From: Escherichia coli | GTDB lineage: Bacteria; Pseudomonadota; Gammaproteobacteria; Enterobacterales; Enterobacteriaceae | Assembly: GCF_003334785.1 (NCBI RefSeq) | Contig: NZ_QOWV01000042.1 | Reading direction: 5' to 3' (one strand) | Length of the DNA: 5,682 bases | Shown: piece by piece, positions 1 to 5,100 of the stretch | How positions within the stretch are numbered: position 1 is the stretch's first letter | Layout: each line of letters starts with the position of its first letter | Translations under genes and position numbers: made by a program | Notes under the pieces: generated by a model | Databases searched by the model: none | What the model was told of the DNA's origin: nothing | The model's input: only the letters and a program-made list of their open reading frames with translations

Positions 1-68
1 GGTCATCGCCGAAACTGACGGTTTTCAGACTCTTGATCTCATCGTCCAGATAGCGGTTCAGCTCGAGG
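1..68. repeat. Partial copy of the same 75-bp repeat unit at the window start
   Basis: Positions 1-68 are near-identical to repeat units at 5163-5230. The array of copy A continues beyond the window edge. Confidence 0.85.
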
Positions 69-229
69 TGTTCATAATCTTCACTGACGCTAAAACTCTT
101 AACATTTTGTAGCATCTTATATTCGTACTTCAGCTTCTCTATTAACTCATTACTTAAATCATCAAGAGCATCATGGTCATATTTCGATGACATCAGATGC
201 GATTTTTTAATCATAAATCTGCCATCCAT
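1..229 (-). CDS. Acidic tandem-repeat protein, copy A, N-terminal part only (3' end beyond window start)
   Basis: ATG at 229-227 (minus) with SD AAGGAG at 241-236 and a 6-nt spacer, 13 nt after the stop of the upstream PIN-like gene. Hand translation of 229..2 is open throughout: MDGRFMIKKSHLMSSKYDHDALDDLSNELIEKLKYEYKMLQNVKSFSVSEDYEHLELNRYLDDEIKSLKTVSFGDD. The last residues are the first copy of the 25-aa repeat seen in full at 5101-5652. Not in the ORF track because it has no stop inside the window. Confidence 0.6.
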   Translation of the reverse strand, partial: MDGRFMIKKSHLMSSKYDHDALDDLSNELIEKLKYEYKMLQNVKSFSVSEDYEHLELNRYLDDEIKSLKTVSFGDD

Positions 230-242
230 ATGATACTCCTTC

Positions 243-1427
243 TTACTCTGTTATTGATGAAAGGATTGAGCTCATCTTCTGAATAGAAGATAACTTTCCT
301 TTCATTAGAAGTCTAATTTTAGCCATTATCTCAGGATCTGTCGCAGATTCTAGCTTTTTAGATAGACCAGCAATTTCTGCCTTTTCTCTTTTTATTCTGT
401 TTTCTAGGAGTGCTCGGTGTTCACTGTTGCTTGTGTTACTTCCAGCTCCATACCCATTCCCTGTTGAAATGTTGAGGTTTTCGGTGTTTATTTTAAGATC
501 GAATGCGTTGTTTATATTTAAGATTAGTTCTTTTGTGTTTATTACATCAAAAAATTGAACGCTTGAGTTATTTAGCATTTCCTCTCTTAATATAGCGTGA
601 ACGCCTTTGTTTTCTCTATTTTCTTTATCTCTACCAACTTTAAATATGAAGTCATCTTTTGCATCATTAGTGATTAGGAAAACGTTTTTCGCACCTGTTG
701 ATGCGGCATGCTCTAGAGTTTCTTTCCATATGTAGAAATCACCATAAGCTCTTTGATAAGTAATGCCGTCATAAGAGAATATATTGTCTGGCTTTCCTAC
801 CTTGTCTGCGTCACAGAATCCAGGGGGCGTTTTTAATTCATACCTTGATTTACATTCAGCATCTAATCCATTAATGTATTCTTGGTCCTTTTTTACGCCT
901 ATTTTTCCAGAGAATATGTTGTCAATCCATTCTCTATGTATGTCTTTTGTATTTAACTCATCAATTGATTCATTGAGTTTTCCATACATATCCTCTAGTC
1001 CTGAGTTTAATAAATCAATGGATTTTTTTATTAACTCAGATACTTGTCTGTTTAGCCCTTCGTAATGCCTTGCTTTGGAGTTGTTGCATTTTTCTAATAG
1101 TTTTGATGAATAAGATAATAAATCAACAACAGGAGATGTTGTTGTTGATATCAAGTGTTTCTGATCGTCGATAACCCCTAATCTTCTTCTCTGATACTCC
1201 AACGCAGTAAAATAAGGGAGATATATATTTTCTCTTATCTGTTCTATTGATTTCTTTATCGCAGATATTGTTTCCTGGTTGTTTCTATATAGGTCTAATA
1301 TGACATTGGTGTCAAAAACAAATAATGTATCATCTGCCCTGTATATATCAGGATTGTCCTTTATGTTGCCTGTATAAAATCCTTTAAACATATCCCTCAT
1401 CGACATAAAAAAGCCCCTATTATTCAT
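243..1427 (-). CDS. PIN-like (VapC-type) putative nuclease with a large internal insertion and a C-terminal coiled-coil tail
   Basis: Long minus-strand ORF (track 243..1493, stop TAA at 245-243). Contains FDTNVILDL (first PIN acidic motif), a conserved Glu in TALEYQ about 38 residues later, and LITNDAKDDF (the T-x-D-x-D-F motif typical of VapC/PIN) about 215 residues after the first Asp, implying an inserted domain. The track's first codon at 1493-1491 is TTG, not ATG. In-frame ATGs at 1472, 1427 and 1406 are alternatives; 1406 has a GGGG SD-like run 7 nt upstream. A perfect TTGACA on the minus strand at 1469-1464 could be a -35 element. The gene is strongly AT-rich compared with the plasmid backbone. 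Confidence 0.7.
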   Translation of the reverse strand: MNNRGFFMSMRDMFKGFYTGNIKDNPDIYRADDTLFVFDTNVILDLYRNNQETISAIKKSIEQIRENIYLPYFTALEYQRRRLGVIDDQKHLISTTTSPVVDLLSYSSKLLEKCNNSKARHYEGLNRQVSELIKKSIDLLNSGLEDMYGKLNESIDELNTKDIHREWIDNIFSGKIGVKKDQEYINGLDAECKSRYELKTPPGFCDADKVGKPDNIFSYDGITYQRAYGDFYIWKETLEHAASTGAKNVFLITNDAKDDFIFKVGRDKENRENKGVHAILREEMLNNSSVQFFDVINTKELILNINNAFDLKINTENLNISTGNGYGAGSNTSNSEHRALLENRIKREKAEIAGLSKKLESATDPEIMAKIRLLMKGKLSSIQKMSSILSSITE

Positions 1428-1501
1428 TTCTGTTTTGTTCTTTTCGTCAGTTGCTGACTCTTGTGTCAACATCAAAATCAATCGATCATGCAAATGATCT
1501 C

Positions 1502-1530
1502 TTGAGATTCCTTTTTTCTACGCGTAATCT
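1502..1530 (+). promoter_or_regulatory. RNA II (replication primer) promoter
   Basis: -35 TTGAGA at 1502-1507, 17-bp spacer, -10 TAATCT at 1525-1530. This matches the ColE1/pMB1 RNA II promoter arrangement. Confidence 0.8.
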
Positions 1531-1542
1531 TTCTTCCTGTAA

Positions 1543-1646
1543 ACGAAAAAACCACCCTGGCAGGTGGTCTTTTCGAAGGTTAGATAATCCTGGCAGATTC
1601 TCTAACCGTGGTAACAGTCTTGTGCGAGACATGTCACCAAATCCGT
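1543..1646 (-). ncRNA. RNA I, antisense copy-number control RNA
   Basis: Minus-strand promoter with -35 TTGAAG (complement of 1682-1677) and -10 TACACT (complement of 1658-1653). Predicted start is near 1646. Intrinsic terminator is the hairpin at 1551-1568 followed on the minus strand by a U-run (complement of 1545-1550). Length is about 100 nt, as expected for RNA I. Confidence 0.75.
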
Positions 1647-1652
1647 CCTTTC

Positions 1653-1682
1653 AGTGTAGCCTCACTCAGGCCACCACTTCAA
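1653..1682 (-). promoter_or_regulatory. RNA I promoter
   Basis: Same hexamers and position relative to RNA II as in pMB1/ColE1 (TTGAAG, 18-bp spacer, TACACT). Confidence 0.7.
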
Positions 1683-2049
1683 GAACTCTCGATACATCTC
1701 TCGCACATCCTGTTTACCAGTGGCCGTTGCCAATGGCGATTAGTCGTGTCTTTTCGGGTTGGACTCAAGACGATAGTTACCGGATAAGGCGCAGCGGTCG
1801 GACTGAACGGGGGGTTCGTGCATACAGTCCAGCTTGGAGCGAACTGCCTACCCGGAACTGAGTGTCAGGCGTGGAATGAGAAACCGCGGCCATAACAGCG
1901 GAATGACACCGGTAAACCGAAAGGCAGGAACAGGAGAGCGCACGAGGGAGCCACCAGGGGGAAACGCCTGGTATCTTTATAGTCCTGTCGGGTTTCGCCA
2001 CCTCTGACTTGAGCGTCGATTTTTGTGATGCTCGTCAGGGGGGCGGAGC

Positions 2050-2060
2050 CTATGGAAAAA
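2050..2060 (+). other. Origin of replication (RNA II to DNA transition, oriV)
   Basis: The motif gcggagcctatggaaaaa lies about 520 nt downstream of the RNA II start, corresponding to the ColE1 primer processing and DNA start point. Confidence 0.65.
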
Positions 2061-2299
2061 GCGCCTGCGGCGCGGCCTTTTTCGGGGTTTCCGTTTTTGC
2101 GCACATGTTCTTTCCCGGGTTATCCCCGGATTCTGTGGATAACTGTGTTACCGTTTTTGTGTGAGTCAGTACCGCTCGCCGCAGCCGAACGACCGAGCGT
2201 AGCGAGTCAGTGAGCGAGGAAGCGGAAGAGCGCCGGAAGCTACATTTTCTCCTTACGCATCTGTGCGGCATTTCACACCCGGCATGGTGCACTTTTCAT

Positions 2300-2400
2300 A
2301 CCATCCGCACTGATGCTGCATGAGTAAGCCAGTATACACTCCGCTATCGCTACGTGACTGGGTCATGGCTGCGCCCCGACACCCGCAAGGTCAACGGCCT
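2300..2400 (-). other. bom / oriT (basis of mobility) with nic region
   Basis: taagccagtatacactccgctatcgctacgtgactgggtcatggctgcgccccgacacccgc is near-identical to the pBR322/ColE1 bom region and lies between ori and rop as in those plasmids. The nick is expected on the minus strand within the complement of taagccag (2325-2332). Confidence 0.7.
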
Positions 2401-2477
2401 GACGCGCCCTGACGGGCTTGTCTGCTCCCGGCATCCGCTCACAGGCAAGCTGTGACCGTCTCCGGGAGCTGTATGTG

Positions 2478-2669
2478 TCAGAGGTTTTCACCGTCATCAC
2501 CGAAACGCGCGAGGCAGCTGCGGTAAAGCTCATCAGCGTGGTCGTGAAGCGATTCACAGATGTCTGCCTGTTCATCCGCGTCCAGTTCGTTGAGTTTCTC
2601 CAGCAGCGTTAATGTCTGGCTTCTGATAAAGCGGGCCATGTTAAGGGCGGTTTTTTCCTGTTTAGTCAC
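2478..2669 (-). CDS. rop: Rop/Rom, RNA I-RNA II pairing modulator
   Basis: 63-aa ORF MTKQEKTALNMARFIRSQTLTLLEKLNELDADEQADICESLHDHADELYRSCLARFGDDGENL, recognised as the Rop protein. It converges on RNA II, as in pBR322. Confidence 0.95.
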   Translation of the reverse strand: MTKQEKTALNMARFIRSQTLTLLEKLNELDADEQADICESLHDHADELYRSCLARFGDDGENL

Positions 2670-2701
2670 TGATGCCTCCGTGTAAGGGGGGATTTCTGTT
2701 C

Positions 2702-3058
2702 ATGGGGGTAATGATACCGATGAAACGCGAGAGGATGCTCACCATACGGGTTACTGATGATGAACATGCCCGGTTACTGGAACGCTGTGAGGGTAAACAA
2801 CTGGCGGTATGGATGCGGCGGGTCTGCCTGGGTGAGCCGGTTGCCCGTTCCGGGAAGCTGCCGACACTGGCACCGCCGTTACTGCGCCAGCTGGCTGCCA
2901 TCGGGAATAACCTGAATCAGACAGCGAGGAAGGTGAACAGCGGGCAGTGGTCTTCCGGCGACCGGGTTCAGGTGGTGGCCGCACTGATGGCCATCGAGAG
3001 AGAGTTGCGCAGCTTACGGCAGGTCGTCAGGGGACAGGGAGCGCGGGATGATAGTTAA
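2702..3058 (+). CDS. mbeC: Mobilization accessory protein MbeC (MobC family, ribbon-helix-helix)
   Basis: Translation ...MLTIRVTDDEHARLLERCEGKQLAVWMRRVCLGEPVARSGKLPTLAPPLLRQLAAIGNNLNQTARKVNSGQWS... matches the ColE1-family MbeC fold. The 5' part is colinear with the mob remnant retained in pBR322. Start is uncertain among ATGs at 2702, 2711, 2720 and 2735; 2702 has an AAGGGGGG run about 10 nt upstream. The stop overlaps the mbeA start. Confidence 0.8.
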   Translation: MGVMIPMKRERMLTIRVTDDEHARLLERCEGKQLAVWMRRVCLGEPVARSGKLPTLAPPLLRQLAAIGNNLNQTARKVNSGQWSSGDRVQVVAALMAIERELRSLRQVVRGQGARDDS

Positions 3059-3424
3059 GTTTCATGCCAGGGGGAAAGGTGGTGGCAGTGGTCCGGTTGA
3101 TTACCTTCTGGGAAGGGAGCGTAACCGGGAAGGTGCAACGGTACTGCAGGGTAACCCGGAAGAAGTCCGGGAACTCATCGATGCCACGCCATTTGCGAAG
3201 AAATATACGTCCGGTGTTCTGTCGTTCGCGGAGAAGGAACTGCCGCCGGGAGGACGTGAAAAAGTTATGGCGAGCTTTGAGCGTGTACTGATGCCCGGTC
3301 TTGAAAAAAATCAGTACAGCATCCTGTGGGTGGAGCACCAGGACAAGGGACGGCTTGAGCTGAATTTTGTCATTCCGAACATGGAGCTACAGAGCGGAAA
3401 ACGCCTCCAGCCGTACTACGACCG

Positions 3425-3476
3425 GGCAGACAGGCCGAGAATTGATGCCTGGCAGACAGGCCGAGAATTGATGCCT
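3425..3476. repeat. Exact 26-bp tandem duplication inside mbeA
   Basis: Two perfect adjacent copies of ggcagacaggccgagaattgatgcct, followed by a further partial copy ggcagac. 26 is not a multiple of 3, so the duplication shifts the frame. Confidence 0.9.
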
Positions 3477-3761
3477 GGCAGACGCTGGTTAATCACCATT
3501 ACGGGCTGCATGACCCCAACGCCCCGGAGAACCGCCGGATACTGACTCTCTCTGATAACCTGCCGGAAACGAAACAGGCGCTTGCAGAGAGCGTCACACG
3601 CGGGATAGACGCTCTTTATCATGTCGGGGAGATAAAAGGCCGTCAGGATGTGATTCAGGCGCTCACAGAGGCAGGGCTTGAAGTGGTCAGGGTGACGCGA
3701 AGCAGTATCAGCATTGCAGACCCGAACGGTGGGAAGAATATCAGGCTGAAAGGAGCATTTT

Positions 3762-4292
3762 ATGAGCAATCTTTTACAGACGGGCGCGGAGTTCGAGAAA
3801 AAGCTGAAAGAGAGAGCCGAATCTACAGAGACAATGCTGAACGACGAGTTCAGGAAGCTCGAAGAATCTGTAAACAGGGAGCTGACCTCAAACGAATCTT
3901 TAATCAGGAACGCTATCAACGACCATACAGCAGCCCTGAAAGAACTTCTGGAGAGGTATCAGAAAACGACCGTCAGCACGATGGACACACACTGGCAAAC
4001 CGTGCTGAAAATGAGCGTGAAACGCTGGCTGTGGCTGATTATCGTCTCAGTACTGATGTTTGCCACGACCGGGAGTCTGCTGTGGTACCAGGGCATGAAG
4101 ATAAACGAGAATATGAATATTCTCCGCGAGCAGAAAGAGAGTCTGGAGAAGCTGAACGCGAAGACATGGGGCGTGCGTTATCACGAGGACAGCAACGGAC
4201 GTTTTCTGGTGTTGCCGAAGGGGATGAAAGCCGAAACGAACTGGACGAAGGACAACGGCAAACTGAACGCAGTGAGACTGGTGCAGGAGTGA
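3762..4292 (+). CDS. mbeB: Mobilization protein MbeB (nested within mbeA in an alternative frame)
   Basis: 176-aa ORF starting MSNLLQTGAEFEKKLKERAES with a hydrophobic segment WLWLIIVSVLMFATTGSLLW. RBS AGGAG is 6 nt upstream of the ATG. Overlapping arrangement inside mbeA is as in ColE1. Confidence 0.8.
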   Translation: MSNLLQTGAEFEKKLKERAESTETMLNDEFRKLEESVNRELTSNESLIRNAINDHTAALKELLERYQKTTVSTMDTHWQTVLKMSVKRWLWLIIVSVLMFATTGSLLWYQGMKINENMNILREQKESLEKLNAKTWGVRYHEDSNGRFLVLPKGMKAETNWTKDNGKLNAVRLVQE

Positions 4293-4298
4293 CAGAGC

Positions 4299-4532
4299 AT
4301 GACGGAGCTGGAAAGACATTTGCTGAACGCCTTAGAGCAACTGCAACAGGACTATATGCAGCGGCTGAACGAATGGGAGAGCGCCTTCGTGGAATTGCAG
4401 AAAATGTTTTCGCTTACGCAACGGGACAACGCGATGCTGAACGAGCGGGTCATGCAGTTGAGTCAGCAGGTGCAGCACTTGAGCGAGCGGACAGAACGCT
4501 TGAGCCAGTTATACAGCGAGAACAGGAGATAA
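4299..4532 (+). CDS. mbeD: Mobilization protein MbeD (nested within mbeA)
   Basis: 77-aa ORF MTELERHLLNALEQLQQDYMQRLNEWESAFVELQ..., predicted coiled coil. AGGAG lies 9 nt upstream of the ATG. Position immediately after mbeB is as in ColE1. Confidence 0.7.
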   Translation: MTELERHLLNALEQLQQDYMQRLNEWESAFVELQKMFSLTQRDNAMLNERVMQLSQQVQHLSERTERLSQLYSENRR

Positions 4533-4632
4533 GGGACGAACGGCTGATACAGGAGCGCGAACATGCGTTATCCCTGGAGCGTGAGCGCCAGCCGGAAATA
4601 CAGGAACGCACACTGGATGGCCCTTCGCTGGG

Positions 4633-4839
4633 ATGGTAATCAGAGACAGGCTAAAATGTTGTCAGCGCGTTTCCGGTGCATTTTTTGGGATAATGGTTGG
4701 TTCGGGGGCACCGGGAACGCGCTTCAGTCAGACCTTGCTGAAAACACAGGAACGCGTTAAAACGCATACGGGCGCGATTCTGGTGTATCTTTTGTTGCTG
4801 TGTTTTGCCGTTATTGCCAGATCGCGCTCATTCCCCTGA
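4633..4839 (+). CDS. Small hydrophobic protein, possible MbeE
   Basis: 68-aa ORF whose ATG overlaps the mbeA stop (ATGGTAA) and which has a hydrophobic stretch ILVYLLLLCFAVIA. No convincing SD. Assignment is by position only. Confidence 0.3.
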   Translation: MVIRDRLKCCQRVSGAFFGIMVGSGAPGTRFSQTLLKTQERVKTHTGAILVYLLLLCFAVIARSRSFP

Positions 4840-4879
4840 ATTTCTGTTTTTCCGCTCCGGTTCCGTCTTCTGCCTTTCC

Positions 4880-5090
4880 GAAAGTATGAAAAAAATCCGT
4901 TTCAGCAGTCTCTGGCTGGAAATTCCTGCGTGATTCACATGGCTGCATAGCTATGCATGTGGTTAAAATTTACCGGGTGCGATCGCGGCAGTTTTTCGGG
5001 TGGTTTGTTGCCATTTTTACCTGTCTGCTGCCGTGATCGCACCGAACGCGTTTCAGTGGTGCGTACAATGGGATGTTATGGTAAATGGCT
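4880..5090. other. cer-like XerCD multimer-resolution site with upstream accessory sequences
   Basis: Core ggtgcgtacaa-tgggatg-ttatggtaaat at 5058-5086 resembles the ColE1 cer XerC arm, central region and XerD arm. Upstream sequence gcggcagtttttcgggtggtttgttgccatttttacctgtctgctgccgtgatcgc and the palindrome tgcatagctatgca resemble the cer accessory and ArgR-box region. Confidence 0.7.
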
Positions 5091-5100
5091 CTCGCTAGTT

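Follow-up and report, generated by a model that had tools for sequence, protein, structure and literature searches.

What does a predicted nuclease gene do when it is paired with a gene for an acidic tandem-repeat protein on a small Escherichia coli plasmid? The DNA analysed here, called the window throughout (5,682 nt, contig NZ_QOWV01000042.1 of assembly GCF_003334785.1), is a ColE1-type mobilisable plasmid with two adjacent minus-strand genes, gene 1 and gene 2. An initial annotation, made from the letters alone, had put these forward as a candidate novel toxin/immunity or defence module and recognised no described system in the pairing. We likewise found no description of the pair in PADLOC v2, NCBIfam or the searchable literature. 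We conclude that the gene 1 family is known though uncharacterised, and that the pairing of nuclease and acidic repeat protein is real, conserved and undescribed; a toxin/immunity or defence function is what we infer for this cassette. Positions 1..5598 of the window are 100% identical to plasmid RCS83_pIII (pIII) of E. coli ECOR 10 (NZ_LT985292, 5912 bp). The cassette comprises the following features.

243..1406, minus strand: gene 1, predicted nuclease of the PIN_8 family, 387 amino acids (aa); stop TAA at 245..243, likely start ATG at 1406
230..242, minus strand: intergenic spacer gaaggagtatcat, 13 nt, with an AAGGAG ribosome-binding site for gene 2 (read in the sequence)
1..229, minus strand: 5′ part of gene 2, from the ATG at 229..227 through the 57-aa unique N terminus to the first repeat (25 aa), running off the window start (read in the sequence)
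5101..5598, minus strand: 3′ part of gene 2, with the last ~6.6 repeats of 75 bp (25 aa), a degenerate final unit and the stop at 5101..5103 (TRF period 75; 100% identical to ECOR 10 pIII)
1407..1490, minus strand: cargo DNA preceding gene 1, ~85 nt from the backbone boundary to the start codon (from the edge of backbone homology)

A PIN_8 nuclease gene and its repeat-protein partner

We examined gene 1 by profile search and structure prediction. It matches the Pfam family PIN_8 (PF18476) with an E value of 1.2e-41 (143.6 bits) over model positions 1–218 of 227, and all gene 1 homologues found carry PF18476. Pfam also returned a weak match to PIN_12/DUF4935, and phrog_9788, a family of unknown function, covers gene 1 over its full length (E 2e-45). 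PIN_8 has been described as a cluster of the VapC group with four to five active-site residues and 'function unknown' (Matelska et al. 2017, PMC5499597). An AlphaFold2 model of gene 1, built from an alignment of 143 family members (mean pLDDT 91.4), has an alpha/beta PIN core of VapC type, an insert after strand 2 that folds as a long hairpin of antiparallel helices (residues 65–153; helices 65–108 and 113–153) and a helical hairpin at the C terminus (residues 327–384). The PIN assignment of the initial annotation is thus borne out by both profile and model, within a family that still carries the label 'function unknown'. The VapC-like motifs on which it rested, FDTNV and LITNDAKDDF, are present, and the residues it numbered D61 and D277 correspond to D32 and D248 of the 387-aa protein and are conserved. 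D32 and E70 never vary among the 143 sequences; D223, D248 and D252 are each kept in at least 90%, so the acidic active site looks intact. A Foldseek search of the model against the PDB gave nothing significant, a profile search of PDB sequences with the PIN_8 family alignment gave no match, and gene 1 matched no family in PADLOC-DB v2.0.0 or NCBIfam.

The longest gene 1 open reading frame (ORF) begins at a TTG at 1493 and would encode 416 aa, the extent initially given, and the annotated ECOR 10 record starts at the equivalent of 1472. Because ATG 1406 corresponds to the first codon of all homologues (M-S-M-R/K-x-x-F-K-G-F-Y), we take it to be the likely start. Within the subfamily the C-terminal hairpin is the most variable region of the protein (48% mean identity, versus 70–79% in the core), which would be compatible with co-evolution with gene 2 but is no proof of it.

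The operon had initially been placed within 1..1493. Gene 2 in fact runs off position 1 of the window, and its last 6.6 repeats and stop lie within 5101..5621. We therefore read the intact gene from ECOR 10 pIII, where it forms an uninterrupted ORF of 346 aa with a unique N terminus of 57 aa and 11.3 repeats of the unit NRYLDDEI[KM]SLKTVSFGDDHEL[LR][EK]L (75 bp, 25 aa). The protein is repetitive and strongly acidic, as first described, with 84 Asp and Glu against 52 Lys and Arg and a net charge of −32. The annotated ECOR 10 record begins gene 2 at an internal Met and gives it 308 aa, not 346.

The initial annotation had allowed that gene 2 might be non-coding. The repeat frame contains no stops, versus 5–111 in the other frames, and the repeat periods among subfamily loci (75, 75, 78 and 87 nt) are all whole codons; the ribosome-binding site and ATG are conserved. 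The 13-nt gap and AAGGAG Shine–Dalgarno (SD) sequence between the two minus-strand genes can be read directly, and the junction is kept in homologues as TAA-(A)AAGGAG-N5/6-ATG (loci L002, L003, L006, L008/9, L018 and L019). By this arrangement the two genes form an operon with translational coupling. Six diverged loci, with gene 1 56–76% identical, were found in Proteus and on metagenomic Rep3-type or other small plasmids. All close-homologue loci that reach beyond the gene 1 stop (the window/ECOR 10 cargo and these six) have the junction, a shared N-terminal motif (M-[NDS]-[DE]-x-S/R-F-[LMV]-x-K/R-K) and an acidic repeat ORF. The repeats themselves vary in sequence from locus to locus around a common core, L-[SN]-x-x-L-D-[DE]-E-[IL]-x-x-[LM], in units of 25, 26 or 29 aa. 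In PLSDB, gene 2 occurs solely on plasmids with gene 1, and among 75 distant PIN_8 loci, sampled from species-representative genomes, not one is followed by a tandem-repeat ORF. The neighbourhood survey that had been suggested thus finds an acidic repeat partner at every close homologue examined and at none of the distant loci. The kept junction, motif, in-frame repeats and co-occurrence, together with this absence from distant loci, argue that the pairing is subfamily-specific and that gene 2 is no chance ORF. On sequence grounds, then, gene 2 is a real protein-coding gene and the dedicated partner of gene 1.

A 173-aa antisense ORF (5161..5682, plus strand) also crosses the repeat array. It arises because one antisense frame of the repeat happens to have few stops (5 over the full ECOR 10 array), and we do not take it as evidence of a gene.

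Searches gave few leads to the nature of the gene 2 protein. Pfam found no domain in gene 2, no DNA-binding domain in gene 2 or its homologues, and no leucine-rich repeat (LRR) family at E ≤ 0.001 in the six homologous sequences (best, LRR_5 at 0.013 in one of the six). Against PADLOC-DB v2.0.0, gene 2 gave weak repeat-inflated matches only (E ≥ 0.002, no significant single stretch), and matches to a phage head–tail joining protein and many PHROGs were discarded as repeat-inflated sums without a significant single stretch. A word-index homologue search for gene 2 returned nothing. A single-sequence AlphaFold2 model, of low confidence (pLDDT 51), places one short strand per repeat on K-T-V-S-F, and almost all Foldseek matches of this model are LRR proteins (best E 7.8e-4), including TLR13, the circular LRR protein CroV588, designed LRRs, Lingo-1 and the LRRs of NLR proteins. 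The pattern LxLxxNx[LF] is present in all three repeats of locus L019 and has no strict match in the window unit, which reads L-K-T-V-S-F-G-D-D, that is LxxVxFxxD, with Asp where LRRs have Asn or Cys. An LRR-like acidic alpha/beta solenoid is a lead from modelling, not a result.

The composition of the two genes differs. Both had been described as far more AT-rich than the backbone, which holds for gene 1 (GC 0.33–0.34, versus 0.50–0.60 in the backbone) but not for the gene 2 repeat array (GC 0.49; GC at third codon positions, GC3, 0.72). Gene 1 (243..1406) is rich in AGA, ATA, TTA and CTA, with a GC3 of 0.30, CTG for 0 of 36 Leu, AGA or AGG for 18 of 19 Arg and ATA for 23 of 36 Ile. The gene 2 repeats (5101..5598; L001 3559..4430) are rich in CTG, CGC and ATC, use CTG for 34 of 53 Leu and contain no AGA, AGG or ATA. 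The codon-usage switch and the strong SD before gene 2 suggest that the nuclease may be poorly and its partner efficiently translated. The N terminus of gene 2 has a codon usage like that of gene 1, and the GC jump within the operon is also seen in L008 and L019 and is absent in L006.

Upstream of gene 1, no convincing sigma-70 promoter was found in the ~85 nt of cargo DNA, no LexA box (CTGT-N8-ACAG) is visible there by eye, and the upstream regions of subfamily loci are poorly conserved. Immediately upstream, and on the same strand, comes the replication-control transcript RNAI (1543..1645). Gene 1 may depend for its expression on transcription that passes the RNAI terminator, and would then be linked to replication-control transcription.

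Plasmid setting, mobility and relatives

We next consider where the cassette sits and how it travels. Three further features of the window are needed here.

1543..1645, minus strand: RNAI (Rfam), with the RNA II start in the same region
5058..5086, plus strand: cer-type XerC/XerD core, GGTGCGTACAA-TGGGATG-TTATGGTAAAT (pattern match, 0 expected by chance)
5599..5682, minus strand: anomalous segment at the window end, repeating the gene 2 N-terminal region (window 62..145) without gaps at ~70% identity and interrupted by an in-frame TAG (alignment)

Because homology to other ColE1 plasmids (thousands) is confined to ~1491..5086, with its edge at 1488–1491, the cargo can be delimited as 5087..5682 plus 1..1490. 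It measures 2.1–2.3 kb and holds only two genes, and the backbone carries rop, mobC, mbeB and mbeD after RNAI. The cassette therefore lies between cer and the RNA II promoter, as the initial annotation had placed it. The cer-type core is 14 nt from the gene 2 stop, and its end coincides exactly with the cargo/backbone boundary at 5086, which raises the possibility that the Xer site is a place of cargo exchange in these plasmids. Related plasmids use this slot for other cargo, namely colicin E1, a bacteriocin of the colicin V family, CfrBI restriction–modification, AbiEii with PP2C or a colicin Z-related gene.

The cassette was found, 99–100% identical, on three different ColE1-type backbones in two genera, from E. 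coli and Klebsiella variicola; the window/ECOR 10 form is seen again, with hardly a change, in K. variicola and in E. coli FDAARGOS_1248. This near-identity across backbones indicates, from sequence comparison, that the cassette is horizontally mobile, in support of the acquisition first suggested by base composition. The subfamily was found only on small plasmids, ColE1-type and Rep3-type. The cassette itself is uncommon, turning up on 3 PLSDB plasmids and in 1 of 5426 complete E. coli genomes. We found no close relatives of gene 1 in IMG/VR.

The relaxase gene mbeA of the window plasmid (ORFs 3048..3545 and 3650..4639) is frameshifted by a perfect 26-bp tandem duplication at 3425..3483. Compared with pRHB38-C24_6 this is a 26-nt insertion, and removing one copy restores an ORF of 521 aa. 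The window plasmid is, on this reading of its sequence, probably no longer self-mobilisable.

The right end of the window departs from ECOR 10. Its array is shorter by ~314 nt, with the 84 nt at 5599..5682 in their place. Mismatches in this segment are spread evenly over codon positions (9/6/10), and when the window is read as a circle gene 2 joins out of frame and stops after 78 codons. The segment was not found in the ECOR 10, K. variicola or FDAARGOS_1248 records or in JGI metagenome contigs; it is either a real rearranged pseudo-allele or an assembly fault. The 'complete' records of K. variicola NZ_CP044052 (L015) and E. coli FDAARGOS_1248 are linear and broken inside the 75-bp array, and FDAARGOS_1248 lists the plasmid as two, of 2099 and 3816 bp (NZ_CP069548 and NZ_CP069547; L100/L101). 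The array thus breaks or mis-joins assemblies, 'complete' records included, so that such genes are systematically under-annotated.

The wider PIN_8 family comprises 4823 clusters at 50% identity with E ≤ 1e-3, and the window subfamily is a single one of these. Most PIN_8 relatives are single intracellular genes. The distant single-gene proteins are typically 420–520 aa, 40–130 aa longer than gene 1, with which they align to about residue 310. Their C-terminal tails are variable: tandem repeats occur in 11 of 138 tails and in 0 of 138 cores, and 33 of the 138 tails have strongly acidic ends (a net charge of −4 or lower in the last 20 residues), such as DDDSNSED and EDSDDEM. Tails of near-perfect tandem repeats with periods of 23–40 aa, several of them acid-ended, were seen in P0018, P0070, P0106, P0126, P0086 and L016 (Klebsiella pneumoniae pC51_006, 362..2086).

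Several relatives, in a list that is partly hand-picked, lie in defence or mobile contexts. On Lactococcus pIL6 the PIN_8 gene directly follows hsdR-M-S; the Halomonas locus adjoins a HEC-07 gene, the Kosakonia locus a SIR2 gene (7.5e-164) and the Buttiauxella locus a mad3-like ATPase. PIN_8 is the last gene of Clostridium phage phiCp-A, in Vibrio vulnificus it stands in an integron-like array of acetyltransferase and barstar cassettes, and it occurs in at least 98 IMG/VR contigs, with ~32 of 80 retrieved loci lying ≤3 kb from a contig end. At five Bacteroidota loci (L063, L070, L072, L092 and L094) it directly follows or overlaps an NsnA-like gene with two DUF262 domains (PADLOC NsnA, 1e-44 to 1e-57). 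These NsnA-like proteins have ~760 aa (513 aa in L072), no NsnB is evident, and the PIN_8 catalytic residues are intact; these gene pairs may form a Menshen-like variant of only two genes, in which the PIN is active. A Firmicutes subfamily (L051, L044, L052, L056–L059, L065, L067, L068 and L076) has a conserved partner of 233–235 aa, 12–13 nt upstream and without a PADLOC match, and in L051 the two genes adjoin a type I methyltransferase.

Possible functions of the pair

Our preferred reading, held tentatively, is that the cassette is a mobile two-protein conflict module in the style of a toxin and its antidote, serving phage defence, plasmid addiction or both. A conflict module is suggested by the ColE1 cargo slot, the identical cassette on three backbones and the relatives in mobile and defence settings; restraint of a toxin is suggested because gene 1 uses rare codons while the gene 2 repeats use preferred codons after a strong SD. 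The repeat-bearing and acid-ended tails of the single-gene relatives, which recall gene 2 in fused form, and the variability of the gene 1 C-terminal hairpin add support at the level of architecture. Gene 1 would be an active Mg-dependent PIN_8 nuclease with a VapC-group core, an acidic site of D-E-D-D type, a long helical arm and a variable C-terminal hairpin. Gene 2, made from the same mRNA by coupled translation, would be a cytoplasmic, strongly acidic and fast-evolving repeat protein, possibly an LRR-like solenoid, that binds the nuclease and either holds it inactive or directs it. Phage infection or plasmid loss would free the nuclease, the partner being degraded, titrated or bound by an invader protein, and the freed enzyme would destroy RNA or DNA, giving abortive-infection defence, plasmid addiction or both. 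The scheme builds on what was seen here, namely the modelled fold, the conservation of the active site, the operon, the conserved pairing and the mobility; physical interaction, inhibition, trigger and substrate are the parts we propose.

Several observations weigh against this reading. Neither protein matches any PADLOC model, and the gene 2 model has low confidence. Provided that the sequence is genuine and the molecule a circle, the window carries a complete gene 1 but only 78 aa of gene 2, and a truncated partner beside an intact nuclease argues against a strictly essential antitoxin. Neither phmmer nor blastp relates gene 2 to the tails fused to single-gene PIN_8 proteins, and for this reason the idea of gene 2 as a detached tail is an architectural analogy only. 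Many distant relatives are single genes between housekeeping genes. In a less biased sample of neighbours (for each of 20 genome loci, the closest ORF of 140 aa or more to either side), a PADLOC match was found at only 3 of the 20 loci, one of them merely an orphan methyltransferase, a count that has no control set. The defence-island argument is therefore suggestive only.

Some of the same observations could be explained if gene 2 aimed the nuclease instead of restraining it. As a specificity or sensor solenoid it would recognise foreign nucleic acid or protein and recruit or activate the PIN_8 nuclease; gene 1 alone would be harmless, and gene 2 would serve to make it active, not to protect the cell from it. 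The top Foldseek matches of the gene 2 model are all LRR ligand-binding proteins; rapid evolution of the repeats, in sequence as well as in unit length and copy number, is what a recognition surface would show; an apparent truncated-partner allele with an intact nuclease, such as that of the window, would be tolerated; and other PIN_8 subfamilies pair with sensor-like partners such as the NsnA-like ParB-DUF262 proteins, NsnA having been given a sensor role (PMC12065111). We nevertheless consider a targeting complex unlikely: the gene 2 model is of low confidence, there is no Pfam LRR match, the strong negative charge would be expected of an inhibitor or nucleic-acid mimic more than of a protein that binds nucleic acid, and the rare-codon throttling of gene 1 resembles toxin control. 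A pure plasmid-addiction pair, stabilising small plasmids by post-segregational killing with no anti-phage role, would fit a subfamily found only on small ColE1-type and Rep3-type plasmids, the toxin-first order with tight coupling, and the loss of the host plasmid's relaxase, which makes vertical retention matter. High-copy ColE1 plasmids with cer are already stable, however, the wider family is chromosomal, prophage-borne and sometimes within restriction–modification or defence loci, and the rarity of the cassette (1 of 5426 complete E. coli genomes) is unlike that of successful addiction modules; to addiction alone we give a low probability.

An operon of the nuclease-colicin kind, in which a bacteriocin-like nuclease is paired with an acidic immunity protein, is brought to mind by the plasmid slot, which is that of colicin operons, and by the order of a nuclease followed by a coupled acidic protein. 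This is very improbable given a gene 1 model made up of a PIN core and helical hairpins only, without receptor-binding or translocation domains, a 2.1–2.3-kb cargo with no room for a lysis gene, the lack of a LexA box by eye in the 85 nt upstream, and relatives that are mostly single intracellular genes. The array could also be an RNA antitoxin of the type III toxin–antitoxin (TA) kind, with the 75-nt repeats acting as RNA and the gene 2 ORF incidental, as a tandem direct-repeat array does adjoin a nuclease gene on the same strand. We regard this as scarcely credible. In gene order the array follows the nuclease, where a type III antitoxin would precede it; SD, ATG and N-terminal peptide are conserved and unit lengths are always multiples of 3; the motif persists in the protein although the DNA has diverged; shuffled versions of the repeat RNA fold better than the repeat itself (z = +1.77); Rfam finds RNAI only and nothing at the array; and the gene 1 fold is not that of ToxN/AbiQ.

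Returning to the toxin–antidote reading, a stronger form would make gene 2 a cytoplasmic acidic LRR-like solenoid that is at once the stoichiometric inhibitor of the PIN_8 nuclease and a hypervariable sensor of invaders. We think this form quite unlikely. If true, it would be a prokaryotic counterpart of ribonuclease-inhibitor/NLR logic, with an array whose growth, shrinkage and diversification are driven by an arms race; single-gene PIN_8 proteins would carry the same device in fused form, as their variable repeat tails, and a family of several thousand uncharacterised proteins would gain a mechanism. More generally, an acidic repeat protein that restrains or senses would be a new antidote or sensor architecture for TA and defence biology, built of tandem, fast-diversifying and possibly LRR-like repeats, and could help to make sense of the variable repeat tails seen in single-gene relatives. 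PIN_8 has been 'function unknown' since 2017 and is spread over plasmids, prophages and chromosomes. The cassette is its most compact form with a dedicated partner, and ECOR 10, a standard reference strain, carries it on a plasmid of 5.9 kb.

Comparison with known systems

We compared the cassette with systems that pair a nuclease with a second component. VapBC fails on size, gene order and the DNA-binding antitoxin. Gene 1 is ~2.7 times larger than a VapC toxin (387 aa versus a compact ~130–150 aa), with an insert hairpin of ~90 residues and a C-terminal hairpin. Its partner gene lies downstream, whereas the VapBC antitoxin gene lies upstream, and the partner is a 346-aa tandem-repeat protein without a detectable DNA-binding domain, unlike the AbrB, ribbon–helix–helix, Phd or helix–turn–helix antitoxins of VapBC. 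ToxIN and other type III systems share a nuclease beside a direct-repeat array, but the repeats here are coding, downstream and unstructured as RNA.

Menshen (NsnABC) resembles the wider family in two respects: PIN_8 stands beside NsnA-like genes at the five Bacteroidota loci, and the NsnC effectors have PIN-like N-terminal domains ahead of a C-terminal nuclease. The PIN-like domains lack catalytic residues (PMC12065111), whereas the PIN_8 catalytic residues are intact, and the PIN_8 proteins beside NsnA-like genes have no match to the NsnC models. The window itself contains no NsnA or NsnB.

Among inhibitor-based pairs, the colicin–immunity operons (E3 and E9 with their Im proteins) and barnase–barstar likewise have a nuclease followed by a small acidic inhibitor in one operon, and the ColE1 cargo position is shared with the colicins. 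The cassette differs in having no uptake domains, lysis gene or SOS box and in its large, repetitive partner; domain content, a cargo of two genes and the lack of a LexA box by eye speak against a nuclease colicin operon as such. Ribonuclease inhibitor bound to RNase A, and the LRRs of Toll-like receptors and NLR proteins, offer a parallel, also seen by Foldseek, in acidic alpha/beta solenoids of 20–29-aa units that bind nucleases or ligands. Gene 2 differs from them in having no Pfam LRR match, a window repeat without the canonical LxxLxLxxNxL and a model of pLDDT 51.

RnlAB and LsoAB are toxin-first RNase TA pairs with anti-phage activity, and lsoAB is carried on a small plasmid of E. coli O157. 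Their folds are unrelated to those of the cassette, RnlA and LsoA not being PIN_8 proteins and their antitoxins not being repeat proteins, but they share with it a toxin gene followed by its antidote on a small enterobacterial plasmid and, in the mechanism proposed here, the release of a nuclease on infection.

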